DNA from: an uncultured Anaerolineaceae bacterium
Lineage (GTDB): Bacteria; Chloroflexota; Anaerolineae; Anaerolineales; Anaerolineaceae
Length of the DNA stretch: 39,283 nucleotides
Direction of reading: 5' to 3'
Assembly: GCA_964570745.1 (NCBI GenBank)
Contig: CAZMZQ010000002.1
Span: 1-39,283 of the forward strand
Part shown: piece by piece, positions 8,961-36,077 of the stretch
How the letters are laid out: every line of letters begins with the position of its first letter
Position numbering within the stretch: position 1 is the stretch's first letter
Translations under genes and position numbers: made by a program
Notes under the pieces: generated by a model
The model's input: the letters and a program-made list of their open reading frames with translations, nothing else
Database searches by the model: none
What the model was told of the DNA's origin: nothing

Positions 8961-8980
8961 TTGGCAGAAAGCTGGCAGAT

Positions 8981-10357: not shown

Positions 10358-10358
10358 T

Positions 10359-12363: not shown

Positions 12364-12462
12364 GCCCTGCTTAGAGCCTCACTTTTATTAGGTATAATAA
12401 ACAATTGTGTAAATTAAAGAATTTGCGGTTATTTGACCGTGTAAATACAGGAGAATTAATTA

Positions 12463-19911: not shown

Positions 19912-21462
19912 TCATAAAAGCTTTTGATCTATCGATGCTACGGTATAGATCGAATTTTTTCCCAAATTGTGACCGTGATTGGCTGCCTGATTGTTATTAA
20001 GCAGACATCTGCCATTGGTAAAATCAAAACTCAATCCATGAATATAAACCGGTTGATCCTGCGAAGTGTGAAGCCATTGCCCGACCGCATGCCAAAACGC
20101 TTTTAGTGGCTGGCCGAATCGGTCCTTAATCGATTCATCTTCGTCGAGATAGAATTGTGCTTCTTTACTTTTCGGTCTCTGCCAAATCTCAATCCTTCTG
20201 GAAGGGCTAACCATTGAGCACAACGGCTGCACACCCACATTGCCTTGTTCGATCAGGTCAAAAAGGGTTTGCAAACAGGTTTTTCCCTGACCGTAGAAAA
20301 GCGGGAGCATCGATTCATGCATCAAACTGGTATCAACACCGTTCAAAAACTGACCACCAAATTCAACAAGATCAATTATTTGCTGCCTGTGATCTCTGCG
20401 ACCGACGATCTGAAAAAGCAAATCTGCCCTCGGGCTGCGGGAAGACCAGCCGGTTGAATTTTGTAATAAAAGGGTGCCATCTTCAAAGCCCGCATTTTCG
20501 TCAAGCCCAAGCCAATAACAATTCCCGTTATTAACCGACCCGCTGCGCTCCACTACCAACCAATATCGTTCGCCAACTTCAAGCTCCGCATTACCGGGCA
20601 GGTTTACTTCAACCCATCGGTAGGTTTCAACATTCAATTCAGATGGAGATACGGTTGTATTGGTCAATATCAAGCCAGATGGTTGATTGCCAAGATCGGT
20701 TTGAATGCTGACCTTGAGATTGTCTGCGGGCATACCCTGTCTGCGTACACGGAGTGAAGCTGAAAACGCCTGGATGGGACTGTTGACTACGAAAGATTGT
20801 GCCAGGCGCAAGTTGGATGTGCTCTGCCCAACTGGTTGGGTTCCAAGTTGAGCTGGTCGGTGTTCCACGATTCCATTCCACCCCTGCCAGTAACGCCACG
20901 CAAGCGTTTCCATCCAACTTCGGCAGTTCAAAACATAACCTTCATCTTGAAGCCGACCTGTGAGCTTTCCTTTCAAAGCAACTTTCGGCTGTGAATGAGC
21001 GGACAACCAGTCACCAACGAGTAAATCTGCTACCTGACCATGCATAAATTGTCTCTGCAGGAGCTGTTCCTTTATTCCATAAACCTCCTGGCTCTCTGGG
21101 TCGTCTTTCCATTGGGTTTGTTGAAAAACAAAAGGCTCTGAATCGGTTGGCAGCAAATAACGCACAGCCACCCGGTTTGCCATGCTATCCAAACCAAGAT
21201 TAAAAACCTGATTTCCTCTCATTTGATCCACTGATTCGAGGAAGCCCCACCAGGCAAGTCGCCCTTCCGGGTCGTAAACTCGTATATCCTGCCCCAGACA
21301 GATACGCCAATCTTGCAAAGTCATCCCGCCACACGGACAAAATACCCGTGCCTGGCTGGGACCGTAACGGTCATTCCATTCAAGGTTAAGCGGAAGGCAG
21401 TCTTCCGGAGAAAATATAAATTTGCCAGCCTGACGGTTGAGAATTTCGAAAGCCCAGCTCAT
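19912..21462 (-). CDS. Hypothetical phage-associated protein (516 aa; possible tail/adsorption component)
   Basis: GGAGG RBS and ATGA start/stop overlap with the upstream gene. It is the last gene of the phage-like operon. No motif recognised. Confidence 0.5.
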   Translation of the reverse strand: MSWAFEILNRQAGKFIFSPEDCLPLNLEWNDRYGPSQARVFCPCGGMTLQDWRICLGQDIRVYDPEGRLAWWGFLESVDQMRGNQVFNLGLDSMANRVAVRYLLPTDSEPFVFQQTQWKDDPESQEVYGIKEQLLQRQFMHGQVADLLVGDWLSAHSQPKVALKGKLTGRLQDEGYVLNCRSWMETLAWRYWQGWNGIVEHRPAQLGTQPVGQSTSNLRLAQSFVVNSPIQAFSASLRVRRQGMPADNLKVSIQTDLGNQPSGLILTNTTVSPSELNVETYRWVEVNLPGNAELEVGERYWLVVERSGSVNNGNCYWLGLDENAGFEDGTLLLQNSTGWSSRSPRADLLFQIVGRRDHRQQIIDLVEFGGQFLNGVDTSLMHESMLPLFYGQGKTCLQTLFDLIEQGNVGVQPLCSMVSPSRRIEIWQRPKSKEAQFYLDEDESIKDRFGQPLKAFWHAVGQWLHTSQDQPVYIHGLSFDFTNGRCLLNNNQAANHGHNLGKNSIYTVASIDQKLL

Positions 21463-22790
21463 GGTAACCTCCAATGTTTGCGAATCCATGCCCTTATCTT
21501 CAACGTCCGTTCGATCGGTGCGCCATTTGCATCTGTTTGAAAAAGCCAGAAGTGCTGCTTGTGAGACGGATTGATCGACAGAGGTTCACCCATCCTTCGG
21601 TGGGTTTTAATCTCCAGCCCCTGTTTTATTGACCAACTCGTTTTCAACATTCCATCTACGACCAACCGGGACTGATGAGGCAAACCGCTGATACTATGAA
21701 AGACACTGAAAGGCTCATGGGGCAACAATAAAATGTCATCCAGATTAAGTGTGTGTCTACCAGTAGCCGTATGTTTCGCCTGCAAAACCAATTGATGCGA
21801 GTATGCATAGTTCACCAGGGGCAGGCTGCCTATAGGTAAATTGAACGGTTCCAACACCACAAAACCACTGCCATTTTCCACCTCTGTTTCAGGGCTCTGC
21901 CAGACTATATTGTTATCCACAGCGATTTGAAGGCGTAAATAAAGCGGTCCGCCACTTACCTGGCTGAACAGGCGTAAAATCGGTGTGCAGGTGCGTTTGC
22001 GCAGCTGACTCACCTCAACCGGACCAATTGTCCAGGCTGCCAGGTTTGTCCACGATGAGCCAGACCATTCATAATAGACATATTTCCCTCCGGATGCAAG
22101 CGAAGAGGTCAGTGCAGACCCTCCTGATCCGCCTTCTGCTTCAAGGTTAAGCATCGCCCGGCTATCAAACTCTGTGTCTGCCAAACCGCCCACCCATAAA
22201 TTTGACAGGCTGTCACCAGCAAAAGTGTTTTCAAGTTCCATCCGCAGGGACGCTGGCTGGATCAAATCAAGCGCCGCGGTATCAATGGTGAACCAGTTAT
22301 CATGACCAGGCTGGTTATCGTCGTGGTTATAAATTGTCAGCCCGTTGGTAATCCCTCCGCCGGAAGAATTGGATAATGGTAGCGGTTGTTCAGAGCCAAA
22401 AAAGCTGTTTTCACGTTGAATAAGCAGGTGAAGCTGTATTGAACCAGCCTTGTGCGATGCCAGCTGCCCGCTGGCTATTTCAAGCCTTCCGCTTTGTATC
22501 AGGCTGTAAAGATAAGCCGATTGATCTTCGCTCCAAATTCGCAGCACCAGTGGCATGTAGGAAAAATCCGTTCCCGTCCTGAGGAGTGATTCCAGGTTAT
22601 CGATAATTGAACGGATTTTTGTTTTGGAACCGCGAAGGTTCAGGGTCAGCTTCTCTTCCACCAGTGGTTCAAGGCTCGGATTCAATCCATATTCCGTACT
22701 GATCAATCCCATGGGCTGGTCGGCACTCTGCAGCACAAACCACGAACCCTCGTCAGGTCTGCCCAGGTTTCCGATTGCGAGATCACTCAT
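21459..22790 (-). CDS. Hypothetical phage-associated protein (443 aa)
   Basis: 8-nt overlap with the upstream gene. Function inferred from operon position only. Confidence 0.5.
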   Translation of the reverse strand: MSDLAIGNLGRPDEGSWFVLQSADQPMGLISTEYGLNPSLEPLVEEKLTLNLRGSKTKIRSIIDNLESLLRTGTDFSYMPLVLRIWSEDQSAYLYSLIQSGRLEIASGQLASHKAGSIQLHLLIQRENSFFGSEQPLPLSNSSGGGITNGLTIYNHDDNQPGHDNWFTIDTAALDLIQPASLRMELENTFAGDSLSNLWVGGLADTEFDSRAMLNLEAEGGSGGSALTSSLASGGKYVYYEWSGSSWTNLAAWTIGPVEVSQLRKRTCTPILRLFSQVSGGPLYLRLQIAVDNNIVWQSPETEVENGSGFVVLEPFNLPIGSLPLVNYAYSHQLVLQAKHTATGRHTLNLDDILLLPHEPFSVFHSISGLPHQSRLVVDGMLKTSWSIKQGLEIKTHRRMGEPLSINPSHKQHFWLFQTDANGAPIERTLKIRAWIRKHWRLP

Positions 22791-23208
22791 AAGACCGATG
22801 CTCCTCTAATTTCCATGCTGCCCACGGTGTGTTTGAGCCATTGTGTAAACTTGCGATCCGCAGCCTGTCCAGCAGATGGTCACGTTCCTGGATGAGATAG
22901 CGCACCCAGGCAGCCAGCGCGTTTGAATCAAGGTTGAGGTTACTGTAACTGACCTGGTGGTGCTGCAAAACCGCCTTGATGACACTGGCAGCGGCACCTC
23001 TCATCAGGGCTGGAAGAAATTCATCCGGCAGGCTGGTGAGTTCTGCAGAATCCAAACCAGCGAGGGTGTAGTTTTCACAAAAAAGACCGTTGATATACCC
23101 GATTGACTCCCTGAAAGCTTCTAACTTAAGCGGTAATTCAATCGCAAGTTGATACGGATCCAAAAATTGTTGTTCCAGGCTCGCAACCAGGTCATCCAGA
23201 TGTGTCAT
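22783..23208 (-). CDS. Hypothetical phage-associated protein (141 aa; possible head-tail adaptor)
   Basis: ATG 23208 is preceded by AAGGGAG. Size and position after the capsid gene fit a connector/adaptor. No motif support. Confidence 0.4.
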   Translation of the reverse strand: MTHLDDLVASLEQQFLDPYQLAIELPLKLEAFRESIGYINGLFCENYTLAGLDSAELTSLPDEFLPALMRGAAASVIKAVLQHHQVSYSNLNLDSNALAAWVRYLIQERDHLLDRLRIASLHNGSNTPWAAWKLEEHRSYE

Positions 23209-23389
23209 TAGAAGCTCCCTTCTTGTGACCAAGACTCTTGAAAGCCTTTTCAACTTCTCCTGCAGAAAAAGTTACTTTCCATCCCCGGTTGTTAATCACC
23301 ACCAGGAAACCGTCCTCACGCAGTCTCCGACTGAGCACATCTTTACCCATAAGTTTGTTTACTACTCTTTTTATTTCTCTGTCAGTCAT
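23192..23389 (-). CDS. Small hypothetical protein (65 aa)
   Basis: Strong AAGGAGGTAAAA-ATG initiation region, basic N-terminus. Confidence 0.5.
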   Translation of the reverse strand: MTDREIKRVVNKLMGKDVLSRRLREDGFLVVINNRGWKVTFSAGEVEKAFKSLGHKKGASNDTSG

Positions 23390-23400
23390 TTTTACCTCCT

Positions 23401-23434
23401 TGCCTGCCCCTTCACGCTTGTGAAGAGGCAGGCA
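23401..23434 (-). other. Strong intra-operon RNA stem-loop (15-bp stem, 4-nt loop)
   Basis: TGCCTGCCCCTTCAC-GCTT-GTGAAGAGGCAGGCA, with a single G-U position. It abuts the RBS of the 65-aa ORF. No U-tract. Confidence 0.6.
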
Positions 23435-23444
23435 GCAAATTGGT

Positions 23445-23636
23445 TTAGGAATCAGCCCTCAGTCCATCTTCTAGGGCAGTGCCCAGGATATAGGTGACCA
23501 GAATTGCGATAATTCCGGCGAGCTGGTCTGGGTCGATCGGGAAGTCGGGGTACCAGACTTTGACCATCATGATGATCAAGCCAACCAGGGCAGCCCAAAA
23601 CTTACGCGAACTCAACAGAAATTTCAATTTTGTCAT
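23445..23636 (-). CDS. Holin-like small membrane protein (63 aa, 2 TM)
   Basis: GAGGAG RBS before ATG 23636. Basic N-terminus, two hydrophobic helices (FWAALVGLIIMMVKVW; LAGIIAILVTYILGTAL) and a charged C-terminus. Confidence 0.5.
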   Translation of the reverse strand: MTKLKFLLSSRKFWAALVGLIIMMVKVWYPDFPIDPDQLAGIIAILVTYILGTALEDGLRADS

Positions 23637-23650
23637 CTCTCTCCTCAGAA

Positions 23651-25603
23651 TCAAGCAACGTTATTCTTGTAAAGCGGTCGGAAGTCGTTCACCCAGACCG
23701 CCAGATAATGGCGAACCTTCAGACGGTGTTCGTCATTGCTAAACACTGCCGGCGAAAGCTCATCACCGGCAATAAAGATCTCAGGTGCAATTCCAAACCG
23801 TTCTCCCACGAAAATAGCCGGGGCAACGCGGGGATCACATACTGCCGCCCAGTCGTTGGCATCGGTCCATTCCGGCACTACAAGTGGCACCGCGCTGCCT
23901 TTGAGCACGTTGTCATAGACATAATCTGCCTCGCGCACAAAGCTGCCAGTACAAATTTCCATGGCGGTGCGTTGTAATGCCCGTGGTACCAGGAGAAACT
24001 TGGGGTTCACCGCCATCTGGGGACCACTGCCGAAAAATCCCGCAGCGTTTTTTACCAACATAGGTTGGGCGTAAACCCTGGCGCTGACAACATCCCAATT
24101 GCCTGCATTCAGAGCCAGGTTCGCCAGGTTGGCATGCCCACCTTTGACTGTGACAGCTTCCAGGTTGAACAAGTTCTCCTCATCAGCCAGGATTGGTCCG
24201 ACGCCAGCTTCGCTTGTGAATATCTCTGCAACCAGGCGGGAAATTTTCCGCATTCCTGCAGAAGCCAGCTCACGGGCATAGGCGCGCAGCTTACGGGTTT
24301 CGTCACGGTCGATCAGCTCAAGCGTCAGGGGGATATAACCACCAAATTTGGTAAACCTGGCAACTTCGGGAGAATCGCCTACCTTTAGCTCAGTGTAATT
24401 ACCGCCTTCAGCGATGCTGGGCAGGTCACCCACCGTGCCGATCAGCGTGCCGGTGATATCATGCAGGCTGTTAAAATGCTCCTGAACGGTTACATTCTTC
24501 CACCAGTCGTAGCCAGCTTTTCCCAACTCTTCCCAGGTGTTGCTAACCAGTTTGTTCAGGCTGTTCTTAACCAGTCCAGTGAAATCGGCTGTGGTCGCAA
24601 GCCTGGTTCGTTCGAGAAAATAACCACCATGCAGGTCATAATCACCGGTCAATGTGAGATAAAGCTCACGAATACCCGAAAGTCTGGCGACCTGGGTATT
24701 ACCAATTCCTTTTTCGCGGGGTGCGTCAAATAGATCGTCCACAGCAGCCTGCAATCGTTCCGCAGGCTCCAGCATCCCTTCAATTCGGGCTGGACCTTTG
24801 ACCACGCTCGCGCCCTCCAAATCGCTGAGCAGTGTGTGGGCTTCGCGAAGTGCTGCCTGGAGCTCTGCCGGTGCGAAGGTGCGGTTTTGAAACCGTTTTC
24901 GGATATTGGTCTTCAGCCCTTGAGGCAGATTAGAGTTTGAAAGGCTGTTTTCCAGCAAAAAAGCGCTCATTTGCGCACGCATGTTTCGCATTTCCGCCAA
25001 CTGGTCTTCCAGGCTGCCTGCTTCCGGCAGTGGCTGAACTTCCGCTTCCTGAAGCGCGAGATTTGTTTCGATACTATTCTCCTTAAATTGTGTAGACATA
25101 AAGGGTTCTCCTTCCATAATTGGCTTGATTCCAAGTTGATTGAGTGCCCGCAGGAAAATACCACCCCGGGCAGGGTTGTAGACCAGGTCCACCGAGTAGA
25201 TCCGCAGGATCTTCCCGACTTTGCCAGCCTTACCCTGAAAGAGCACGTCTGCTGAAAAACCCACCCTGACAGCAGGTTCGTCCGACTTTTCGAGCACCTG
25301 GCGTCCGATATCCTTGAGCACTTCAGCTGAAGGACCAAAAGCGCTCAATTCAGCCCGCACTCCACACGCTTCAGCATCCCAGGTTGGTTTTCGCAAGATT
25401 CCGGCGATATCGCGTACGGAACGTTCCTTGAGACTATGGTCAACAAAGCAATTGACCCCTTCCCAAAGTTGCAGGGAATCCCTGAGCACTTCCGCAGGGA
25501 ACACCCAACCATTGGCTGACCCGGCTGTGATTGCCAGTATCTCGAAGCGACCACTACCGACCGGGTTGACCTCCAATGCCAGCCGTTGTCGACTTTCAGT
25601 CAT
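23651..25603 (-). CDS. Prohead protease-like / scaffold-like / HK97-fold major capsid protein fusion (650 aa)
   Basis: GGAAGGAG RBS before ATG 25603. The N-terminal ~170 aa have protease-like H and S contexts (CFVDH; VGFSADV). The middle is a helical A/L/E/Q-rich segment. The C-terminal ~300 aa look like a major capsid protein. The gene follows the portal gene. Confidence 0.55.
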   Translation of the reverse strand: MTESRQRLALEVNPVGSGRFEILAITAGSANGWVFPAEVLRDSLQLWEGVNCFVDHSLKERSVRDIAGILRKPTWDAEACGVRAELSAFGPSAEVLKDIGRQVLEKSDEPAVRVGFSADVLFQGKAGKVGKILRIYSVDLVYNPARGGIFLRALNQLGIKPIMEGEPFMSTQFKENSIETNLALQEAEVQPLPEAGSLEDQLAEMRNMRAQMSAFLLENSLSNSNLPQGLKTNIRKRFQNRTFAPAELQAALREAHTLLSDLEGASVVKGPARIEGMLEPAERLQAAVDDLFDAPREKGIGNTQVARLSGIRELYLTLTGDYDLHGGYFLERTRLATTADFTGLVKNSLNKLVSNTWEELGKAGYDWWKNVTVQEHFNSLHDITGTLIGTVGDLPSIAEGGNYTELKVGDSPEVARFTKFGGYIPLTLELIDRDETRKLRAYARELASAGMRKISRLVAEIFTSEAGVGPILADEENLFNLEAVTVKGGHANLANLALNAGNWDVVSARVYAQPMLVKNAAGFFGSGPQMAVNPKFLLVPRALQRTAMEICTGSFVREADYVYDNVLKGSAVPLVVPEWTDANDWAAVCDPRVAPAIFVGERFGIAPEIFIAGDELSPAVFSNDEHRLKVRHYLAVWVNDFRPLYKNNVA

Positions 25604-25682
25604 AAATCTCCTTCCATTTTGATTGATGCCCTGTTTCAAACTAATTGCCTGCCCCACGCTGGGCAATTGGTTGAAGTTATTC

Positions 25683-26999
25683 TTATTCGCCATCTGAACC
25701 AGATTGGTCAGGAACGCGTTCACCCATAAAGCGATAAACCAGGCGCAGATATTCCCGCTCATCAATCAAACCATGCTCAAGCAAGCCGGCAGCCACTTCG
25801 TGAATCTGTACGCCTGCCTGTGCCAATTCGCGATTGTCACGGGCACTGACGTCACCACCTTCAACGCTTATTTGAACATCCGGATTGATATGAGGGTCGT
25901 ATAAAGCGCGTCTTGAAACGACTACGCGCAAGATCGTTTCGACCATGGCACACAAAAAACGCTGCCGCTCTGAGAAACGCCGGTAGGTTGGGCTTCCAGC
26001 TGCTTCAGCAGTCGTCTTTGTAGACGATTCTGGCTCTGCCAGGAAATGCAGGGGCAGCCCCACCCCGGCAGCGATCATCTTTTTAATCGCCAGACCGTCG
26101 CTGGATGCGTCAAGCGCTTCCAGTTTAGGTGCCAGCACTGACCACTCTTCACTTTCATCAGTCACTAAAACCGAACCAGGCGCGGGTGGATTGGCAGCCA
26201 ATTGCAGTTGGCGGGAATAACGTTCGTTTTCGCTGCCAAAGCGTGCCTTGACTACATAGACAAAGGCATTCCGAAAGCGATTTAACCTTACCCGGTCTTC
26301 AAGCCAGGCACTGTAGCGGGAAAGCCATTTCAAAACCGGCGTCAGGTCTCCTTCACCCCACTGCGAGCCGCTTGGTCTGTTGATGGCAAAGTGAAGCATA
26401 ACTTCCGGCAAGCGATTGTGCATATCCATCTCTTCATTACGAGGGTCATATGCCTGGCAAATCAGGGGCTCGGTATTACCAGGTTGCCTGATGTGATATG
26501 CCAGCTCCTGCTCAATGTCGTTTTCCCGCGATTGAATTTGCAGCACATCAGCCGCGGGGACGATGCGCAGATAGGTCATACCGCTTTGATCGCTGCTGAG
26601 CATCAAAAACAAATTTCCGCTCAGGCAGAGCTCGTCACTAAACTGGTTGATCTTCTGATCCAACAGGTTAAGCCTGTGCTGCCAGAATTCTGTGATAAAC
26701 GCCTGGGTTGGCTTGTCTGAACAGGTTACTACCATCCCACCGCCAGCTGCATATTGGGTAGTCAGTTCAACGATTCGTCTCGCAACAGGGTTAAATCGCC
26801 AGGCATCCAGGCTGTCAAGCATGATTTTCTGCCGGTCATATACCTGGCGGTCACGCGGAAGACTGAAAGCAGGCTGCGCCCCCACTAAAAAGTTGTTTTC
26901 AGTTTCAACCTGGCTCAGTCCAAGCCGCTGATTGCTTTCCAGTTTTTCGTCAGCTAGTTGAAAAAAGGCTTGCAAGCGTTCTTTGAATGAAAAGCTCAT
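25683..26999 (-). CDS. Phage portal protein
   Basis: The 438-aa size and position between terminase and capsid fit a portal, and the general portal-like sequence character agrees (e.g. DAWRFNPVARRIVELTTQY). ATGA overlap with the lysozyme gene. Confidence 0.6.
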   Translation of the reverse strand: MSFSFKERLQAFFQLADEKLESNQRLGLSQVETENNFLVGAQPAFSLPRDRQVYDRQKIMLDSLDAWRFNPVARRIVELTTQYAAGGGMVVTCSDKPTQAFITEFWQHRLNLLDQKINQFSDELCLSGNLFLMLSSDQSGMTYLRIVPAADVLQIQSRENDIEQELAYHIRQPGNTEPLICQAYDPRNEEMDMHNRLPEVMLHFAINRPSGSQWGEGDLTPVLKWLSRYSAWLEDRVRLNRFRNAFVYVVKARFGSENERYSRQLQLAANPPAPGSVLVTDESEEWSVLAPKLEALDASSDGLAIKKMIAAGVGLPLHFLAEPESSTKTTAEAAGSPTYRRFSERQRFLCAMVETILRVVVSRRALYDPHINPDVQISVEGGDVSARDNRELAQAGVQIHEVAAGLLEHGLIDEREYLRLVYRFMGERVPDQSGSDGE

Positions 27000-27790
27000 G
27001 CAGACACTTCCTCCAAAACCATTGCGGGTTTAAGTATTTGAGCGGCACGCTCACAGGCTTTGGAATCCAAAGGACAAATTGCTCCCCCAGTTTTACCCTT
27101 GCCAAAATAAGCCCAAAGCTGCTCCAGGCTCCCGTTCCAACGGTTGTAATCCATATAGCGCCCAACGCCGCCAATGGCTGGGGCACGCTGGCTGGTTTGG
27201 TGGATCAACCACTGACGCACGCCTTTGGGCAACTGGGGAGGGCAGGGATATTCAGGGGTGAATTGAGGAGCATCGTAGCTGCGGATATATTGCGCCAACC
27301 ACCAGTCCAGACTAGGCAGGCTGGCTACATCAAGGTGTTCATTTATCCACGACGCCCGGGAATAAACAATCGGGTATCGCCCGGTGACACTAAACAGATA
27401 ACACAGGCACTGAGTGAGCATGTTCGTGATCTGAACACGGGACTTCCCCTGATCGAGTTCAAGGTCCAGCACGAGTCGGACCTGCTCCAGGTCGACATCT
27501 TTGAGAATGGTCAAAAATGCTTCCATTTGTCGGATCGGGTCTGCGGATGGATAGACCACATGGTAGGGTAAAATACACACCCCGATGCGGGACGCCTCTT
27601 CAAAAAAGCGCTGGAACATGCTGTCGCGATAGCCCCAGGAAATACCGGTGCGTATGGATACAAACCGTATTGCCGGTACGTGGGCTTGAAATTGGTCAAA
27701 ATCGGGGATTTGCCTGCCATCCCAGCTGGCATTATGCTGGGAAAGGTCGATCCCGAACGGGTAGCCCTGATTACGGGTAAAGTAAGTCAC
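26996..27790 (-). CDS. GH25 muramidase (endolysin-type lysozyme)
   Basis: GIDLSQHN catalytic-region motif, a TIM-barrel-like pattern, and a C-terminal HQTSQ..GGVGRYMDYNRWNGS resembling the GH25 WQYS..G.vDlN motif. GTG 27790 is preceded by GGAGG and overlaps the upstream TAG. Confidence 0.75.
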   Translation of the reverse strand: MTYFTRNQGYPFGIDLSQHNASWDGRQIPDFDQFQAHVPAIRFVSIRTGISWGYRDSMFQRFFEEASRIGVCILPYHVVYPSADPIRQMEAFLTILKDVDLEQVRLVLDLELDQGKSRVQITNMLTQCLCYLFSVTGRYPIVYSRASWINEHLDVASLPSLDWWLAQYIRSYDAPQFTPEYPCPPQLPKGVRQWLIHQTSQRAPAIGGVGRYMDYNRWNGSLEQLWAYFGKGKTGGAICPLDSKACERAAQILKPAMVLEEVSA

Positions 27791-28011
27791 TAAAAACCTC
27801 CATCCATTTCTTTGAGTGGGTCTGATGCTTGAATTAGTGCAGGGGTAAAGCTTGGTTTCCAATCAAGTTCGTCCAAAATTGCAGTCATGGCAGCCGAGAT
27901 GACCAGGTCATCATGCAGCAAACCGCCCATTGGATCTGGTGTGCCTTCGGGGACCCACCATTTCATACTCTTATCCGGTCCGATTCCAACCTCACAGCTG
28001 AGCGCTTGCAA
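27790..28011 (-). CDS. Detached C-terminal fragment of terminase large subunit (in frame with upstream ORF, separated by TAA)
   Basis: Contains WWVP...LLHDDLVISAAM, the last acidic nuclease motif of TerL. It has only a TTG start, no RBS, and shares the frame of 28030-29490. Confidence 0.65.
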   Translation of the reverse strand: MQALSCEVGIGPDKSMKWWVPEGTPDPMGGLLHDDLVISAAMTAILDELDWKPSFTPALIQASDPLKEMDGGF

Positions 28012-28029
28012 TTGGCGTTGGAAAAGGTA

Positions 28030-29490
28030 TTAAAGCTGGTCCTGTTCGTTTGCCATTTGGATCGCCAGCGGGTTCAGCGCGCCTGCCTCGGTGTGTGCAG
28101 GCTGCGATGGTCGGAAATCCTGAAATCTACCGGTATCAACTACCGCTAAAAACCCCCAACCGAGGCGGGATTTTAGCTGCTGGTTGAAGACCAGGGGAAT
28201 CACACGTTCGTCCAGTTTGTCGCGTAAAAATGAGCACACACCAGCACCAATCCCGCTGGCGTCTACGACAACCTTTTGGCAAGCCCACTGCTGTGCCAGG
28301 TGGTAGAGTCTTTGGTAGAGTGTGCTGTGACGTTCTCCCTGCCAGAGATAACGCTGTACCACCTGGTAGCGTGGTTTTCCTACGAGGTCGTCATCCAGGA
28401 GGCTCAGGTCTATCTCAACGATGGTCACCGCGGTTGAATCTCTTCCCGGGTTTTGAAGGTTGTTTACCTCCGCTGAAACAAAGCCTTCTTTCCTGGCTTG
28501 TTCATCTTCCCCCGCAATGTCAACCAGCATGGCATACTGCTTGCCCGGTTGAGGATGCTTGCAGGCAGAGTGGTTTCCCTGCATCAGGCTCAGACGTGCC
28601 GGGGTGAAAAGACCACCCGAAAAGTCGATCTCTTCGCTAAAGAATTGTGAGCGCACCATTGGATGCGAACGCCCCAGCCGGGCGATCTGTTCATCGACAA
28701 ACAAGCCATAGGCGGGCACCTCGCGCCTGACTTCTTCGGCTCCGATGCGAAAGACACGCCTGATGCCATCCCGGGCTTCAGCTTCACGGGCTGCCCTCAG
28801 CTCTCGTGCCAACAGGGTTTGCCCGGTCCAGGCAGTCCCCCAAAAAACGCGGGTTGCGTTGGTGGAGGCCGCCATCGGTGCAATTTGCTTGTCGTACTTC
28901 GAAACAGAGATATCCTGGGCTTCATCCAGAGCGAGCATCGTCGAAGCAGTCGCTCCGACAATGTTTGAACCGGGGGCAGCGGAAAGAAAGGTGAGATGAG
29001 CATTTTTAAAGCGGTAATGGTTGCCAGCACTTTTTTGCCATTGGTTGTGGGTCAGATAATTTTGCTGGAGGGCTGTCTCAAGCCGGCGCATGGCGTTCAG
29101 GCTTTGCGGTTGGTAGGTCGGTGAAAGCTTGACCATTTCCGCCCCCTGCTGCCCTAATAAGCTCATCAGGTAAACTTCCAGCTGTGCCTGGAGCATGTTT
29201 TTACCCGATTGCCTGGGAAACATGACCACAAACGAGAGCCCTTTTTGCTCCATGATCGATTTCACAATCGCCCTGGCTGCTTCAGCTTGATAACTGCGCA
29301 GATTCACACTTCCAAAGATATGACTGAAGTTATCGATGCTGCGCAGCCGGCGTAAAAATTCCACCCTGGTTTCCTTGCGTTTCAATTGATTAGTTTTGCC
29401 TGGTTCAACAGGGTTTTGACCCTGAGGTATCGATAAGAAAAGGCGGGTTGGTTGACAGAGGTTAGTCTGTTTGATCATGCTTAATTCCAT
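28030..29490 (-). CDS. Terminase large subunit (truncated by in-frame TAA at 28030-28032)
   Basis: Walker A-like FPRQSGKN, Walker B MLALDEAQDI, nuclease motifs MLVDIAGEDE and VVVDASGIGAGV. Start chosen at ATG 29490 after GGAGGAG. Confidence 0.85.
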   Translation of the reverse strand: MELSMIKQTNLCQPTRLFLSIPQGQNPVEPGKTNQLKRKETRVEFLRRLRSIDNFSHIFGSVNLRSYQAEAARAIVKSIMEQKGLSFVVMFPRQSGKNMLQAQLEVYLMSLLGQQGAEMVKLSPTYQPQSLNAMRRLETALQQNYLTHNQWQKSAGNHYRFKNAHLTFLSAAPGSNIVGATASTMLALDEAQDISVSKYDKQIAPMAASTNATRVFWGTAWTGQTLLARELRAAREAEARDGIRRVFRIGAEEVRREVPAYGLFVDEQIARLGRSHPMVRSQFFSEEIDFSGGLFTPARLSLMQGNHSACKHPQPGKQYAMLVDIAGEDEQARKEGFVSAEVNNLQNPGRDSTAVTIVEIDLSLLDDDLVGKPRYQVVQRYLWQGERHSTLYQRLYHLAQQWACQKVVVDASGIGAGVCSFLRDKLDERVIPLVFNQQLKSRLGWGFLAVVDTGRFQDFRPSQPAHTEAGALNPLAIQMANEQDQL

Positions 29491-29941
29491 AGCTCTCCTC
29501 CACATCTTCCAGAAAAATACTGATTGCTTCCAGCAGTTCACCAGAGACATTTTGAATGGTGTCACCGGTCAGTCCGGCATGAACGCGCATCATGTTTGCC
29601 AACCGGCTGCAGGTTAAACCCAGTAGGTCCACCGTTTTGGCGAGATTTGCCGGATATTCTTTTTCTCCGCCTTCATCAGCAGCATTTGCGAATTGTTTCA
29701 ATACTTTACGTATCAGCTCGATTTCTTCAGCCAGTCCGAGTTTTATGGATTCGGAGAGTTGCAGCCTTTCTGCACTGGTCAAACCGCAATCGCCGTATCC
29801 CAAAATTTCGTAACGGGCATCAATCAGCGATTCCCGTTCCTCAAGCGCAGCAGCGACCTTCACACCGCTGCCCGCCTTTGAAGGGCGGGCAGGGTGGAGG
29901 ACCTGCGACTGTGCAATTAAAGTGGGGTTTTTTTGTGGCAT
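29462..29941 (-). CDS. Hypothetical protein at the position of a small terminase subunit
   Basis: First gene of the operon, 159 aa, GAGGAG RBS, overlaps the TerL start. Function is inferred from position only. Confidence 0.4.
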   Translation of the reverse strand: MPQKNPTLIAQSQVLHPARPSKAGSGVKVAAALEERESLIDARYEILGYGDCGLTSAERLQLSESIKLGLAEEIELIRKVLKQFANAADEGGEKEYPANLAKTVDLLGLTCSRLANMMRVHAGLTGDTIQNVSGELLEAISIFLEDVEESYGIKHDQTD

Positions 29942-29960
29942 CGTTCGCTTCTCCTCATTT

Positions 29961-29978
29961 TTAGAACGTTTGTTCTAA
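29961..29978. promoter_or_regulatory. Putative LexA (SOS/Cheo-type) operator TTAGAAC-GTTT-GTTCTAA
   Basis: Perfect 7+7 inverted repeat containing AGAAC-N4-GTTCT. It lies 20-37 nt upstream of the operon's first ATG, between a -10-like TACACT (29988-29993, minus strand) and the RBS. Confidence 0.6.
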
Positions 29979-30109
29979 TCAAGGATAAGTGTAGCGCATT
30001 TTTTAAAAAAGAAAAGAGGGGAAAACACGAAAAAGAGGGGGTAAAAAAGTGGAAAAATGGTAATTTTGTTGTGGTAACATTATCAATATTGATCATTACC
30101 GGAGGTTAG

Positions 30110-30673
30110 ATGCGCAGAAAAGACCGTGAAATGGATGAAAGTTTTGGATTTGATGTTATTGACAAGTCCGATTTTGGCGTCGTGAGTCTTGTCGGGTCAA
30201 ACGGTGAACCCATCTCGGTACCTCTCTCAATTGTCCGAAAAGAGCGGCTTTTATTTTTTCATAGTTCCAACAGTGGTGAAAAAGTGGAGCAGATGCCGGA
30301 TGGCAAGCAGGTAAGCGTTGTTTTCGTCACTGATGTACACGTACCGGACTTATACCCTGAAGAAGAACTTAACCAGCTGTCAGAGAGCGGTGATCTCGTT
30401 TCTGTCCTTGGGTTAAAGGTTTTCACCACCGAATTTGCTTCCGCAATTGTTCGTGGCAGAGTTTTCAAAGAGCTAAATTACACCAACAAAAAAGAAGCGC
30501 TACGCTTGCTCTGTGAGCGATTTGTCCCCGATAAAATGAAGTATTTTGAAGATGTCGCCGGCGATAATCTCGATATGGTCGCTATTTACAGGATAGAAAT
30601 TGAATCTCTGACTGCCAAACGTAAAAAGTTTGGAGCCGATCGCGAAGAGCTTAAATTTCAGCGTATGGAATAG
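30110..30673 (+). CDS. Pyridoxamine 5'-phosphate oxidase-family (NimA-like) FMN-binding protein
   Basis: MRRKDREM N-terminus, split-barrel pattern and RIEIESLTAKRK C-terminus typical of Nim/PNPOx-like proteins. GGAGG RBS. Confidence 0.75.
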   Translation: MRRKDREMDESFGFDVIDKSDFGVVSLVGSNGEPISVPLSIVRKERLLFFHSSNSGEKVEQMPDGKQVSVVFVTDVHVPDLYPEEELNQLSESGDLVSVLGLKVFTTEFASAIVRGRVFKELNYTNKKEALRLLCERFVPDKMKYFEDVAGDNLDMVAIYRIEIESLTAKRKKFGADREELKFQRME

Positions 30674-30687
30674 CCGGCTCTCAGCTC

Positions 30688-31395
30688 TTAGATATCGGGC
30701 AGTGTTCGGGCGTTTTGTTTGAGCCACAATCTGCGGGTCTGATAGTCCGGCAGCATCATTCCCACTAATTCCCAAAAACCGCGTCCGTGATTGTGATGGC
30801 GGGTGTGAGCCAGTTCGTGAACGACAATGTATTCCACCATCTCTTTGGGCAACAGTGCCAGTCGGTACGAGAAATTAAGCCCATTCCTGGCATTGCACGA
30901 ACCCCAGCGAGATTTTGCACTGGTTATCCGAACTGAGCTCGCATTTAAGCCCCAAATCTCTGCATATCTGTCGATCTTTTCGTTTACCAGCCTGCGTGTT
31001 TCATTCCGATAAAATTTTATTAACAACTTTTCTGCCTGATCAAGCCGGTCCTGCTGCAGATAAAAACCTCTCTCTGCCTTGAAATCCAATCCGTTCTTTA
31101 CCTTGCTGGCATGATTCAATCTCCAACGCCGTCCCAAATAAAAGATTGACGCGCCGTCGTGATAGGCTTGTTTTGTTTTGTCAGAAAAGGCATTAGCCAT
31201 TTTTGCTTTTGCCTGCCTTATCCAATCCGATTTTTCGAGGGCAAATCGATTGATCGTGCTCTTCCAGGTTCCTTTCGGAACCCGCATAATTACCCGTCCT
31301 CCAGGCTTAACCTCAATGGACATTGTCTTACGGTTGCTATAAATAATTTCATCGATCAAATCTTGCATCTTATGATTATAGCTGCCATATATCAA
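30688..31395 (-). CDS. YgjP-like M48/DUF45 metal-dependent hydrolase
   Basis: HELAH zinc motif (IVVHELAHTRHHNHGRGFWELV) and an N-terminal RKTMSIEVKPGGRV pattern. Start is uncertain (TTG 31395 or ATG 31368). Confidence 0.8.
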   Translation of the reverse strand: MIYGSYNHKMQDLIDEIIYSNRKTMSIEVKPGGRVIMRVPKGTWKSTINRFALEKSDWIRQAKAKMANAFSDKTKQAYHDGASIFYLGRRWRLNHASKVKNGLDFKAERGFYLQQDRLDQAEKLLIKFYRNETRRLVNEKIDRYAEIWGLNASSVRITSAKSRWGSCNARNGLNFSYRLALLPKEMVEYIVVHELAHTRHHNHGRGFWELVGMMLPDYQTRRLWLKQNARTLPDI

Positions 31396-31437
31396 TGTTG
31401 TTCATTTTCTCCTTTTTCTGAAGTACAATTTCTTGAT

Positions 31438-32013
31438 ATGTGGAATCAAAAAAGTCTCAGAATTTTCTTCCTTGTGTTAGCGCTTCTCACCTTTCCCAGC
31501 GCTTGCTCGCTGAAATCTGGCTCAAGCCTTCCGCTTGATAATTATCAAAGCCCGAATGGTCGTTTTGAGTTTTCCATTCCCACTGGTTGGCAAACCGTCC
31601 AGGACGATGCCCTCTTCACAACCACACCACCTGACTATTCAGGAAGCGAAGAAGAACTGATCGTCCATGTTTATGCATCACCAACCGAAACTATCGACAC
31701 TGCCACCCATCTCAACCTGGCAAAAGAACAGATCGAACCTTTCCTCGCATCTGTCATCGATGAAGATTATAAGGTCGTTAATGAAGGTGAGACCAAGGTC
31801 GATAAATATCCCGCCATGCTGCTTGATTTTGCCAAACCATACGGCGAAACTTATATGCTCGGTCGCGTTGTTATCGTCGCAATGCCATTCTATGTGCTGG
31901 TGTTTGTTGGAACCGGCATCGAAACTGAATGGGAGGCTTTTTTGCCGACTTTCAGAGAGATGCTAAATCAATTTCATCTCTCTTCAGCTGAGTCTCCAGA
32001 GGGGCAGCCATGA
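31438..32013 (+). CDS. Secreted protein or lipoprotein, hypothetical
   Basis: Signal peptide MWNQKSLRIFFLVLALLTFPSAC. The ORF-track N-terminal extension overlaps the opposite-strand gene and was dropped. Confidence 0.6.
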   Translation: MWNQKSLRIFFLVLALLTFPSACSLKSGSSLPLDNYQSPNGRFEFSIPTGWQTVQDDALFTTTPPDYSGSEEELIVHVYASPTETIDTATHLNLAKEQIEPFLASVIDEDYKVVNEGETKVDKYPAMLLDFAKPYGETYMLGRVVIVAMPFYVLVFVGTGIETEWEAFLPTFREMLNQFHLSSAESPEGQP

Positions 32014-33014
32014 TCAAAGCTTCCAAAAAAATCTTAATTTTAAAAACGGTCCTGCTTTCGTCAGTTTGTGCGCTCCTGGCAGGTTGCGATTACGTTGTAA
32101 CCAGCCCTAATCGCACTGAAGTGCCTCTTTATATCGCACCACTATCAAGCTCTGGAAACCCTAAGCCTACCCCCACCCCGGATTATGCCTCGCTCATCGA
32201 AACAGGTCCCGAAGAGGTGGTAGGTGAAAGTGGTTATGCATTTGCGCCAGTGACCATTTGGGAGCAAGGCAGTCAGCCGCTGGTGATAACGATCAACAGC
32301 GAGCAAACCTCCCTTAGCGATGATGCCGGGCTTGTTTACCGGATCTCAAATGACAGAAACTCCGTCATCCAGGATGTTCAGGACTGCCTGCAGGTCAACC
32401 TTGACCGCCAGGAGGGTAAAGGTTTGGCATTTTATCCCTTTAGCCCTGTGCCAGCCACACTGCCGGTCGGAGAAGGATTGAAAGTTGATTTTGAAGGCAC
32501 TTTGATGGGCTTTGCAGCACGCGGCAGTCTGTTCGCAGTTCAGACCGACCGCGGCTGTCTCAGCTTGTTTGGGGCAGCAAACAATCAATTCCGCGATCAG
32601 CAGCATTTGTGGGAAACATCTGGTCAGGCAGTATTTGACCGCCTAGCCCAAAGCCTGCGTTACCTGGAACACGACGAGCTGCCAACCTGTCTCGCAGCCC
32701 CTAACGACAGTTATGGGCTAAATCCAGATTTTCCGATCCCAGTCGGTAACACCAACTTATACGATGGGAAAGACCGTGAAGAGCTTTATCTTCTCACACT
32801 GCGGGGACCGAACGGTGAAGAGATATTCTTCAAGCGACAAAACCCCATGTTCAATAAAGATGGTGAAATTGTCGATCCATACAAAACCTGGTGGGATGAG
32901 TTTCATATCCCGATAACCTTATATTTCACGATCTATCGTTTTGAAGCGCCTCTCTACTCTCCGGTTGGCTTCACCTGTGAGGCTGTTTTCCCTCTGAACG
33001 ATCCAGGGAATTGA
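32010..33014 (+). CDS. Lipoprotein, hypothetical
   Basis: Canonical lipobox LLAGC after a hydrophobic signal sequence. ATGA overlap with the previous gene. Confidence 0.65.
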   Translation: MIKASKKILILKTVLLSSVCALLAGCDYVVTSPNRTEVPLYIAPLSSSGNPKPTPTPDYASLIETGPEEVVGESGYAFAPVTIWEQGSQPLVITINSEQTSLSDDAGLVYRISNDRNSVIQDVQDCLQVNLDRQEGKGLAFYPFSPVPATLPVGEGLKVDFEGTLMGFAARGSLFAVQTDRGCLSLFGAANNQFRDQQHLWETSGQAVFDRLAQSLRYLEHDELPTCLAAPNDSYGLNPDFPIPVGNTNLYDGKDREELYLLTLRGPNGEEIFFKRQNPMFNKDGEIVDPYKTWWDEFHIPITLYFTIYRFEAPLYSPVGFTCEAVFPLNDPGN

Positions 33015-33020
33015 GCCTTC

Positions 33021-34232
33021 ATGCAGCGTTTAAAATCAATTTTTCGTCGTTATCCTTTCCAGTTTTGGCTTATGTTTGTGGGGTTGGTCGTCTCCAGCAC
33101 CGGCACGACCATGGTCTGGCCTTTTCTGACCATTTACGCCTCTGAAAAACTCCTTTTACCGATGGCTGCCGTTACCAGCCTGATGACTTTCAACTCGATT
33201 TCGGGCTTGATCGCCTCGATCGTTGCCGGTTCGTTGGTCGACTATTTTGGGCGCAAAGGGATCATGGTATTTGGCATTTTTGGGATGGCGATCGTTTATC
33301 TGGGTTACATTTATACGAACGAATTCTGGCAATTTGGTGTGCTGATGTTTCTCTCAGGGTTGTTCAGCCCACTCTACCGCATCGGGACTGACGCGATTGT
33401 CGCTGACATGCTGCCCCCGGAAGAACGTGCCCAGGCATACGGGTTGGTGCGAATGGGTCGAAATATCGGTGTGGCTCTTGGTCCCATCCTCGGCGGGCTG
33501 GTTCTCTCTCGCTCATACAATATCGGGTTTGTTTCGGCAGCGATTACCTTGATATTTTTCGGTTTGCTCATTGTCTTCTTTCTCAAGGAGACGCTCGAAA
33601 TCAAGAGAGACGATCAACGCGAGGACCTGCGGGATCAGTTTAAGGTTCTCGGTCAGGCTTTGAAAAACAAAGCTTTCGTACGAATGCTCAGTTCCTTTAC
33701 CCTGATGGAAATATGCGCTACCCTGATGTGGGTAATCCTCGCAGTTTACATCAAACAAAACTTTGGCATCGATGAAACCCTTTATTCCTGGATCCCGACC
33801 ACCAATGCCCTGATGGTAATCTTTTTGCAGGTGGCGATCACTCACCGCACCAACCGACACGAGTCAACTAAAGTCATGCCGATCGGTGCTGCATTTTATC
33901 CGGTCACAATGTTGATCGTTGCATACAGCAGCAATTATTGGGGGTTTCTAATTGCAATGGTAGTGATGACCTTTGGTGAACTAATCACCGCGCCAACTGC
34001 TACAGCTTATGTCGCAAACCTTGCGCCTCCGGATCAACGCGGACGCTATCTGGGGTTCTTTGGCTTAAATTGGTTTGTCGCCCTGGCGATCGGTCCGATG
34101 GGGGCTGGTTTCCTGTCAGACAATATCAGTATTCAGGCCCCCTGGTTAGCAGGTGCTGTCGTTGGAGTTTTGTCTGTTTTAGCCTTTATGAGCCTGAAGT
34201 GGCTCCCCAAACCAGTCGAAGAAACAATTTAA
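33021..34232 (+). CDS. MFS transporter
   Basis: About 12 TM helices and an MFS loop 2-3 motif (GSLVDYFGRKG). Confidence 0.88.
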   Translation: MQRLKSIFRRYPFQFWLMFVGLVVSSTGTTMVWPFLTIYASEKLLLPMAAVTSLMTFNSISGLIASIVAGSLVDYFGRKGIMVFGIFGMAIVYLGYIYTNEFWQFGVLMFLSGLFSPLYRIGTDAIVADMLPPEERAQAYGLVRMGRNIGVALGPILGGLVLSRSYNIGFVSAAITLIFFGLLIVFFLKETLEIKRDDQREDLRDQFKVLGQALKNKAFVRMLSSFTLMEICATLMWVILAVYIKQNFGIDETLYSWIPTTNALMVIFLQVAITHRTNRHESTKVMPIGAAFYPVTMLIVAYSSNYWGFLIAMVVMTFGELITAPTATAYVANLAPPDQRGRYLGFFGLNWFVALAIGPMGAGFLSDNISIQAPWLAGAVVGVLSVLAFMSLKWLPKPVEETI

Positions 34233-34317
34233 TTTTGCTAATCCTGTGAGGGGAAATCCCAGCATGATGCCAGGGAATTTTTCATCCTGCTTAAGCAATA
34301 ATAACATCAATAGAGAC

Positions 34318-34346
34318 TTGACAAATGGACTTCCAATAACGATAAT
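34318..34346 (+). promoter_or_regulatory. Near-consensus sigma-70 promoter (TTGACA-17-GATAAT)
   Basis: TTGACA at 34318-34323, exact 17-nt spacer, GATAAT at 34341-34346. It sits 30 nt upstream of GTG 34377, which has an AGGAAGG RBS. Confidence 0.7.
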
Positions 34347-34376
34347 AGATCATATGTTCTATATCAGGAAGGTGAA

Positions 34377-34805
34377 GTGACCCAGGTTTTTGTTTTTAAT
34401 GAGTCTGGAGCGGTTCAGATGCTCGATTTTGCAGCCCGCCCGGAAGAAATCACCCGCCAGATCAATGCCGGTGATTGGCAAGCCTATCTTGGCTATGATC
34501 AGGCACGCGAAAACTCCTGGCAAGCGCTGCGGGTGGGAAAAATTGTGATTGTGTATCCCCCGCCATCTCCCGAAGACGCTCCTGTAATTTCTCTGCATCC
34601 AAAAGAATTGCAGGTATTACAAGGGTTGGGCTCTGGATTAAACCTGATTCAGATTGCTTACCGACATCAAGTCACGGTCAAAACGGTCCAAAACTGCCTT
34701 TATCGAATTCAAATTAAGTTTAACGCCCATACCCGGGAGGAGTTGGTCGCCAAAGCAACCGCCTTAGAATACATCAAGCCAGATTTGGACAGCATTTTCG
34801 ATTGA
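34377..34805 (+). CDS. LuxR/GerE-type HTH transcriptional regulator (solo, no receiver)
   Basis: The C-terminal LHPKELQVLQGLGSGLNLIQIAYRHQVTVKTVQNCLYRIQIKF matches the GerE HTH pattern. The N-terminal 75 aa are unassigned. Confidence 0.75.
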   Translation: MTQVFVFNESGAVQMLDFAARPEEITRQINAGDWQAYLGYDQARENSWQALRVGKIVIVYPPPSPEDAPVISLHPKELQVLQGLGSGLNLIQIAYRHQVTVKTVQNCLYRIQIKFNAHTREELVAKATALEYIKPDLDSIFD

Positions 34806-34806
34806 G

Positions 34807-35949
34807 TCAGGATTCAACCTTTGCTGAAGCCTCCCAAAGAGTTTTTGCAACCGTAAAAGCTGCCTCGGGATGTCCGATTAAGCGGGCTGAAGCTGAAACT
34901 CTTTCCAGTTGAACGGCATTATCTTTAAGCCAAAAATCGATCATTGTTGTAAACTCCCCAACGTTCTGCACCTGTGCTCCAGCCTGGTGGCTGGTTATAT
35001 AACGAACGTTACCCTCTTCCTGCCCCGGCAGGAAATCAATCAGCAGCACCGGCAATCCTGCTGCCATGGCTTCGGACATAATCAGACCACCTGCCTTGGT
35101 GACCACCAGGTCAGCAGCCAACATCCATTCCGGCATATTATCAACAAAATTCAAAATAGTTATCGGGAAGCCGAACTTATCTTCCTGAAGTGCGTGATAT
35201 AAATCGTCATTCCCGCCGGCAATCACCACCACCTGGATTGAATGAGAGGTTTCATCAAGGGCGTGCAGGTTTTCAAGGATGTGATCGACTCTGACACCAC
35301 CAACAAATAAGAGCGTGTGCAGCTCTGGATTCAGGTTTAATTGGTGACGCAGCTGTGGTTTATCTGCCTTGTTCAAAGCAAATCTGGGGCTAACCGGGAT
35401 ACCGGTGATCTGAAGTTTGCGCAAGGGCACGCGATTGTCCCTGGCTTTCACCATCACCCAGTCGGAAGCGAGGAAAAAGAGGTCTGGTCCCGGTGCAAAC
35501 CAGAGCGAATGAACATCTGCCAGGTCAGTCACCACGGCATAAAGCGGGGCTTTCAAATTATGCTCTTGTTTTACTTTACCGGCTGGTGCATTAAACATCG
35601 GATTGGTAAGCAGGATGCCATGGGGGGATAAAGCTTTGACAAAATCCCCGATGTTTCGTTGCAAAAAGAGGGTCAGCGCACCTTCCATAATTTCGCTAAA
35701 CTGTCTCGAATCGCTCACTTCATAGCCCAACCGGTATAAGCTTGGGGCATAGCGAACCCCTTTGTCATATCCTTTTTCAATTGGCTTCATCAATGAAATT
35801 GAAGGGCTGTCGAGAATCGGGTTTACCACCAGGTTAAACTGCTTGTCTCCATAGAGCTCAATTAATGCCTTCGAGATCGATATCGCGGCGCTGCGATGAC
35901 CAAAACCAGCGTCACTGGTCAGAATTAAAAAGCGTTTCTTATCTTCCAT
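34807..35949 (-). CDS. GT28-family glycosyltransferase (MGDG synthase / UgtP-like diacylglycerol glycosyltransferase)
   Basis: N-terminal ILTSDAGFGHRSAA motif, a C-terminal GT-B region (VVIAGGND..., TKAGGLIMSEAMAAGLP) and the overall GT-B layout. Confidence 0.8.
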   Translation of the reverse strand: MEDKKRFLILTSDAGFGHRSAAISISKALIELYGDKQFNLVVNPILDSPSISLMKPIEKGYDKGVRYAPSLYRLGYEVSDSRQFSEIMEGALTLFLQRNIGDFVKALSPHGILLTNPMFNAPAGKVKQEHNLKAPLYAVVTDLADVHSLWFAPGPDLFFLASDWVMVKARDNRVPLRKLQITGIPVSPRFALNKADKPQLRHQLNLNPELHTLLFVGGVRVDHILENLHALDETSHSIQVVVIAGGNDDLYHALQEDKFGFPITILNFVDNMPEWMLAADLVVTKAGGLIMSEAMAAGLPVLLIDFLPGQEEGNVRYITSHQAGAQVQNVGEFTTMIDFWLKDNAVQLERVSASARLIGHPEAAFTVAKTLWEASAKVES

Positions 35950-36033
35950 AACATCATCCTGTTTTCATCAGATTTTATCGCTGCAGACACATATTTTTAC
36001 AAACTCGTCCAACCCTGACTGGCTTAAATGCAA

Positions 36034-36061
36034 AGCACCGCTCACTGAATTGAGCGGTGCT
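36034..36061 (-). terminator. Rho-independent terminator downstream of the ferredoxin gene
   Basis: AGCACCGCTCA/TGAGCGGTGCT 11-bp stem with 6-nt loop. On the minus strand it is followed by TTGCATTT. Confidence 0.7.
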
Positions 36062-36077
36062 TATTGCTTGTGTCGTT

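Follow-up and report, generated by a model that had tools for sequence, protein, structure and literature searches.

Does a phage-type packaging gene on the chromosome of an uncultured Anaerolineaceae bacterium still encode a whole enzyme, and what does an interruption in it mean for the gene cluster to which it belongs? The question is raised by a stretch of 39,283 nucleotides from contig CAZMZQ010000002.1, hereafter the window, in which the gene for the large terminase subunit (TerL) is the second of 10 genes in a cluster of about 10 kb on the minus strand (29941..19912). The TerL frame (minus strand, 29490..27790) comprises 566 codons, closes with a TAG at 27792-27790 and is broken by a single internal stop at codon 487. 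We hold, with a probability of about 0.8, that this stop is a real, lineage-specific and recent nonsense mutation, generated by a single C-to-T transition that turned CAA (Gln487) into TAA. The explanation is an ordinary one, a recent nonsense mutation either in one strain or segregating in a population.

The first-pass annotation had described a terminase split by one in-frame TAA, followed in the same frame by an open reading frame (ORF) of 73 amino acids (aa), and sequence and translation agree with that description in every detail. The minus strand reads ...GAC CAG CTT TAA TAC CTT TTC CAA CGC... with the TAA at 28032-28030; the upstream ORF, which starts at ATG 29490 or GTG 29565, ends at 28030, and the 73-aa ORF (28011..27790) is the tail of the TerL frame, as translation of 29490..27790 shows one frame throughout. 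The segment downstream of the stop, containing WWVPEG...LLHDDLVISAAM, does not continue the frame by chance, because the protein specified by the 79 codons after the TAA is 100% identical to the C-terminus of P0001, an intact 566-aa orthologue that is 98% identical to the window protein. In the NCBI source record the locus is called as a 486-aa product (P0121) plus a 58-aa ORF, MKWWVPEG... (P0122, ATG 27966); the practical upshot is that its annotation should read pseudogene or disrupted terminase instead of listing two genes.

The ancestral state of codon 487 is given by relatives of the window. Contig L001, 97.65% identical to window positions 25984-36446 without a gap, has CAA in place of TAA, and the sole difference within the codon is T versus C at 28032. 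Alignment of orthologues placed a sense codon at the stop, CAA being found in the contigs of seven close relatives (L001, L086, L087, L088, L089, L090 and L171) that share 94-98% DNA identity and come from independent samples, while of 17 aligned homologues 16 have Gln here and the remaining one has His. A first scan of metagenomes with the DNA pattern gave no match, and a second recovered one more CAA allele. The gene is uninterrupted across the family as well: in about 70 Anaerolineaceae species TerL is one continuous protein of 546-580 aa, and wherever the species-representative loci cover the whole gene its frame is continuous, except in L064. A homologue search with the uninterrupted translation yielded more than 2,000 homologues, and the best 120, which were looked at, are single ORFs of about 530-580 aa, those with a named source belonging almost all to metagenome-assembled genomes of Anaerolineaceae.

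The same TAA is present in a Logan assembly of SRR8925752, in which contig L006 encodes a second 486-aa protein (P0127). Within TerL this contig and the window have 24 derived sites in common and differ at five. Because two assemblies carry the same TAA allele, misassembly is unlikely and the TAA is probably a real allele. The five differences lie within 109 nt of each other (window 28918-29026), and at three of them L006 agrees in its base with intact haplotypes, be it with some of these or with all; such a pattern suggests either strain mixing in an assembly or a short recombination tract.

Judged by its sequence and predicted fold, the interrupted gene encodes a two-domain large terminase. 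P0001 was modelled with AlphaFold from a family alignment of 88 sequences (A3) with identities down to about 30%, and the model reached a mean predicted local distance difference test (pLDDT) score of 89.2 and a predicted template modelling (pTM) score of 0.82; it replaced an earlier run with 21 close homologues that had been poor (pLDDT 60). After Foldseek search with this model the top matches were all TerL structures (E from 4.6e-15 to 1e-9), including the full-length T4 gp17 (E 4.6e-15), HK97, Sf6, D6E and the G20c nuclease (target-normalised TM-score 0.77), and the ATPase domains of P74-26 and T4 were also recovered. The A3 profile matched the nuclease domains of G20c and P74-26 TerL in the PDB at E of about 1e-7; for the ATPase domain the PDB profile search was weak (4zni, E 0.03). 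The fused window TerL had no Pfam match at E <= 0.01 and P0001 scored 17.5 bits against the Terminase_6C cut-off of 22.6; Terminase_6C was matched by 20 of 21 orthologues at E <= 1 (best E 8.4e-8), and PHROG terminase families match TerL at E 2.4e-5. The genes for the portal and for a protease-capsid fusion follow directly downstream, after a lysozyme gene.

In the profile alignment to the PDB, D410 falls on D347, and the HDD motif at residues 526-528 falls on H427-D428-D429 of G20c/P74-26 TerL; D324 is the putative equivalent of G20c D294, as judged from its place in the modelled fold and not by direct alignment. Besides the residues invariant throughout A3 (Table 1), the orthologues from Anaerolineaceae show no variation at D189-D193. 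The model places the stop within helix 482-496; the part cut off consists of the remainder of this helix, a beta-hairpin (498-512), the segment with the HDD motif, a further helix (528-540) and the C-terminal tail. The intact orthologues carry the three nuclease carboxylates (D324, D410 and D527/D528) on one polypeptide, and only two of these are present in the 486-residue product. The identity of the protein as a large terminase, the placing of the third acidic nuclease motif 3' of the stop, and the view that one stop parts the ATPase and most of the nuclease from a needed C-terminal segment had all been proposed from the sequence, and fold and motif alignment agree with them.

In G20c TerL the residues D294, D347 and D429 are essential to catalysis, and the substitution D429N abolishes activity (Xu et al., PMC5389553). 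The mutant TerL would be a 486-residue protein that keeps the ATPase domain and nuclease strands 1-5; the last 80 residues, from 487 onward, would be lost, and with them H526-D527-D528, the predicted counterpart of the G20c metal-A ligand D429. By homology the truncated TerL should be unable to cut DNA, and its nuclease domain is probably destabilised as well. A headful-type packaging enzyme that cannot cut would neither create nor finish a packaging substrate, so that in this strain the element has most likely lost DNA packaging altogether. An effect on the following genes may be added. The GTG start of the GH25 lysozyme gene overlaps the TerL terminator (TAGTG), with a GGAGG 8 nt upstream within the last TerL codons (window 27785-27810), an arrangement that suggests translational coupling between TerL and GH25; given this overlap, the premature stop, 240 nt upstream, might lower the expression of the lysozyme and of later genes through a polar effect.

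The mutation appears young. Downstream of the stop the window differs from L001 at no nonsynonymous and at two synonymous sites. Substitutions in the ten cluster genes were polarised with L088 and L086, two relatives in which the gene is intact. To the window lineage fell 140 synonymous and 55 nonsynonymous changes, against 112 and 50 for the intact sister lineage (Fisher p = 0.64); neither relaxed constraint nor a second disabling lesion was detected on the window lineage in these ten genes. The ratio of nonsynonymous to synonymous substitution rates (dN/dS) between the window and L001 is 0.08 for TerL, 0.13 for GH25, 0.13 for the first (159-aa) gene and 0.12 for the portal gene. The recency of the change accounts for the intact frame after the stop. 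The other cluster genes, which the first-pass annotation had taken to be intact, have the lengths found in relatives and are free of stops and frameshifts. Among the four options offered there for the stop, a recent inactivating mutation is retained, in what appears to be a repurposed element; readthrough is not, and an assembly error is set aside less decisively.

What kind of element has lost its terminase? The cluster is bordered on one side by genes for DegV, a HAD hydrolase, glycogen phosphorylase and DnaB, and on the other by genes for a PNPOx-like protein, a YgjP-like metallopeptidase, an MFS transporter, a GerE regulator and MGDG synthase. These flanks are host housekeeping genes, and no integrase, replication or lysogeny gene was found in the cluster; scans around it gave neither att-like direct repeats nor promoters or terminators above chance. 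In relatives with TerL 60-85% identical, the ten genes stand in the same order beside the same YgjP-like/MFS/GerE neighbourhood. By scanning species-representative genomes we obtained 73 loci, almost all from Anaerolineaceae: all six large cluster genes are present in the same order in 41 species-level genomes (TerL identity 57-85%), and in 44 species TerL has the YgjP-like gene 1.3-5.6 kb upstream. As an identity correlation, TerL identity follows that of the YgjP-like protein with rho 0.61 (n = 43), and that of the other cluster genes with rho 0.59-0.90. Together the orthologous loci (L002-L005, L009-L012, L013-L082 and L086-L089) indicate that order and neighbourhood are kept in about 40-60 Anaerolineaceae species. 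This pattern is the one expected of a phage-derived element that is vertically inherited and selected; in bioinformatic terms it fits a gene transfer agent and not a prophage in decay.

Because the same locus is kept in many species under purifying selection and contains no integrase or replication genes, we regard the cluster as a candidate domesticated element resembling a gene transfer agent (GTA), and the TAA allele as a sporadic natural knockout of it. That the Anaerolineaceae possess a hitherto undescribed GTA-like system, selected at one locus since before the family diversified and knocked out by the TAA in one lineage (represented by two assemblies that may stem from a single sample), is a tentative reading, to which we give a little less than an even chance. 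To our knowledge GTAs have been experimentally established in few lineages only, and our literature search found no paper on GTAs produced by Anaerolineae or Chloroflexi.

Among known systems a close parallel is offered by RcGTA, the GTA of Rhodobacter capsulatus, with its counterpart in Caulobacter crescentus. Like RcGTA, the window cluster is a compact chromosomal set of head and packaging genes without integrase, replication or lysogeny genes, keeps its order and location across the host clade, is under purifying selection and is sporadically degraded. Unlike RcGTA, which belongs to Alphaproteobacteria, it resides in Chloroflexota, and at about 10 kb and 10 genes it is smaller than RcGTA (about 15 kb, 17 genes); it has its own GH25 lysozyme and a protease-capsid fusion but no recognisable tail proteins. 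With respect to the enzyme itself, the window-family TerL has the ASCE ATPase and RuvC/RNase H-like nuclease of the solved TerLs of G20c/P74-26 (5M1F/5M1O, 5TGE), T4 (3CPE), HK97 (6Z6D), Sf6 (4IEI) and D6E (5OE8), but is only 8-18% identical to them, is longer by about 40 residues at the N-terminus and carries an insertion at roughly 460-480; unlike those phage genes, the window gene is chromosomal, vertically inherited and cut before the third catalytic motif.

The alternative that survives best is that the cluster is an ordinary cryptic prophage remnant without host function, and that the stop is one step in its erosion. In its favour, erosion is seen elsewhere in the family: L064 has a TerL stop of its own at about residue 334 and a fragmented portal gene, L077/L007 keeps only the first two genes and a remnant, and the portal match of L021 is in two pieces. 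With the pseudogenised terminases of cryptic or defective prophages the window locus shares a single point mutation that disables a packaging gene in a phage-derived, non-infectious element. A cryptic prophage, however, is typically an insertion peculiar to a strain and soon decays, whereas the window cluster is syntenic across about 40-60 species and its mutation is a lone and very recent hit in an otherwise selected gene. The order of the six large genes in 41 species-level genomes, the YgjP-like gene upstream of TerL in 44 species and dN/dS values of 0.08-0.13, far from neutral, all speak against a remnant without function, and neutral remnants would not be expected to outlast divergence at the family level. 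We consider this alternative unlikely, though it deserves to be kept in mind.

In L064 (Ca. Mesolinea sp. UBA5823, DICP01000039.1; positions 8808-10466) the TerL frame is stopped directly after GEDEAMR and the portal match is broken into three; the locus is a second, independent and more advanced instance of cluster decay. What is left in L007/L077 (GCA_040772305.1, JAXGYK010000001.1; positions 10001-12702) is the small gene that opens the cluster, TerL and a remnant of 349 aa, followed by genes for GH1 and DUF218, host genes that flank a complete cluster in L011. In L021 (about 12372-13267) the best portal piece, covering residues 293-431, is found about 500 nt ahead of its expected place, which suggests an internal deletion.

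A sequencing or assembly error, in which the true base of the coding strand at 28032 is C and the gene is intact, is improbable. The window does derive from a metagenome-assembled contig (41,195 bp in NCBI), CAA is present in every other relative, and the remainder of TerL is without sign of decay, as would fit an error. Consensus errors in the form of single-base substitutions are, however, rare in short-read assemblies, and the separately produced Logan contig carries the TAA on the same haplotype and yet differs from the window at five other sites.

Still less probable is that the UAA is decoded, with a suppressor tRNA inserting, for instance, Gln or Tyr, so that full-length TerL is made at useful levels by readthrough, suppression or reassignment. 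For such decoding one may cite the perfectly kept frame after the stop, the small number of TerL molecules that suffices per capsid, and the RNA at the stop, which folds slightly better than shuffled sequence (z = -1.95). Reassignment or recoding of UAA was rejected, since TAA is the terminator of 13 of the 35 long ORFs of the window, the portal gene and the cluster's first gene among them, and since the stop occurs in no orthologue and hence marks no conserved recoding site. The sole tRNA found in the window, over which the search extended, is tRNA-Phe. RNA structure was likewise rejected as a recoding signal, as the z value is unremarkable and a near-identical sequence is common to the intact orthologues. 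Least probable of all is a functional split terminase, in which a C-terminal piece (such as the 58 aa from ATG 27966) complements the 486-residue fragment in trans: the 58-aa ORF was indeed called by the gene caller (P0122) and carries the HDD motif, but no such split is present in about 70 species-representative loci or in the listed homologues, the break lies inside predicted helix 482-496 with residues 488-508 in neither piece, and the sequence 5' of ATG 27966 is ordinary coding sequence common to intact genes.

Against the preferred reading, that of a recent nonsense mutation which disables the terminase of a GTA-like element, several points have to be set. The two TAA assemblies may come from the same or overlapping reads, in which case a systematic error is possible. 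The presumed loss of TerL function is argued from homology, and weak natural readthrough of UAA could leave traces of the full-length protein. The GTA-like function is a proposal from sequence and synteny, and for the 141-, 443- and 516-aa proteins Pfam, PHROG and PDB sequence searches revealed no recognisable kinship with tail proteins. Finally, TerL relatives at about 50% identity are found in contigs classed as viral. In IMG/VR, 394 contigs encode TerL relatives, mostly at about 50% identity and often near portal and protease-capsid homologues (L091-L170); their flanks are ambiguous between free phages and other domesticated elements. In L137 (9965-19294), for instance, a cluster of the same order without lysozyme (507, 466, 648, 168, 127, 237, 444 and 489 aa) is flanked by genes for a UvrD/PD-(D/E)XK helicase-nuclease and an ArdC-like protein. 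Among GenBank phages the sole relative found, and the only one from a cultured phage, was the distant one of Bacillus phage vB_BboS-125, at 29% identity.

The context of the cluster outweighs the stop codon, which is in itself a routine loss of function. If the GTA-like reading is true, the GTA phenomenon would extend to Chloroflexota by way of a selected and vertically inherited cluster of Anaerolineaceae, and capsid-mediated DNA exchange would take place in the communities concerned, which, going by the isolate names of the source assemblies, are presumably those of anaerobic digesters and wastewater. The natural knockouts, namely the allele of the window and that of L064, show that bacteria can do without the element in the short term, and could be used for testing its function; the knockout allele beside its intact close relatives would offer a ready-made comparison for the role of the element in uncultured Chloroflexota.

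The features of TerL and of the other cluster genes are listed in Table 1. The parts of the cluster that could be identified are head, portal, terminase and lysis genes.

Table 1. Coordinates in the window of TerL, its motifs and the remaining genes of the cluster, with the evidence for each
Feature	Position	Strand	Evidence
Gene 1, 159 aa, overlaps the TerL start	29462..29941	-	Same position in orthologous loci, 25-74% identity
TerL codons 1-486 (truncated product P0121): complete ATPase, most of RNase H-like nuclease	28033..29490	-	Sequence; call in source record
Walker A, R93-Q-S-G-K-N98	29197..29214	-	R93, Q94, G96 and K97 invariant in A3
Walker B and catalytic Glu, L188-D-E-A-Q-D193	28912..28929	-	E190 and Q192 invariant in A3
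D324, first nuclease carboxylate, motif LVDIAGEDE, end of strand 318-324 (model)	28519..28521	-	Invariant in A3
D410, second nuclease carboxylate, motif VVVDASGIGAG	28261..28263	-	At least 90% of A3; aligns with G20c/P74-26 D347
Premature TAA, codon 487; ancestral CAA (Gln), base 28032 changed from C to T (coding strand)	28030..28032	-	Contigs of relatives
TerL codons 488-566 and terminal TAG, now untranslated or orphaned	27790..28029	-	Identical protein in P0001
H526-D527-D528, third nuclease motif, 3' of the stop	27907..27915	-	At least 90% of A3
GH25 muramidase, endolysin-like, GTG start	26996..27790	-	Pfam PF01183, E 1e-17; PHROG endolysin
Portal protein, 438 aa	25683..26999	-	PHROG 10963, E 2e-32
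Prohead protease/major capsid fusion, 650 aa when counted from the relatives' ATG start	23651..25603	-	Phage_capsid_4 (PF25209), E 6.5e-25
63-aa protein	23445..23636	-	Conserved order and size in orthologous loci
65-aa protein	23192..23389	-	Conserved order and size in orthologous loci
141-aa protein	22783..23208	-	Conserved order and size in orthologous loci
443-aa protein	21459..22790	-	Conserved order and size in orthologous loci
516-aa protein	19912..21462	-	Conserved order and size in orthologous loci

The 159-aa product of the first gene had no Pfam or PHROG match, and its position suggests a candidate small terminase. The protease-capsid fusion also matches the PHROGs for head maturation protease and for major head-and-protease protein. 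For the five distal proteins (63, 65, 141, 443 and 516 aa) no informative family or PDB sequence match was obtained, and PDB sequence searches with the 443-aa, 516-aa and portal proteins gave nothing useful. The 63-aa protein (MTKLKFLLSSRKFWAALVGLIIMMVKVW...AGIIAILVTYILGTAL...) has two hydrophobic stretches, as read from its translation, and could be the holin partner of the GH25 enzyme.

Outside the cluster two plus-strand regions were noted. Beside DegV, where the cluster has its distal end, lies a gene for an 826-aa protein (window 16408-18888) with weak N-terminal matches only, to P-loop proteins of the HerA/DUF87/TrwB type; it is found there in the close relatives L002, L086 and L088 but not in more distant ones. 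Further along (window 8981-12363), the DnaB helicase gene is followed by one whose 508-aa product has two AAA+ modules, matching IstB_IS21 and the ATPase domain of DnaA, and may be a duplicated DnaC-like helicase loader.

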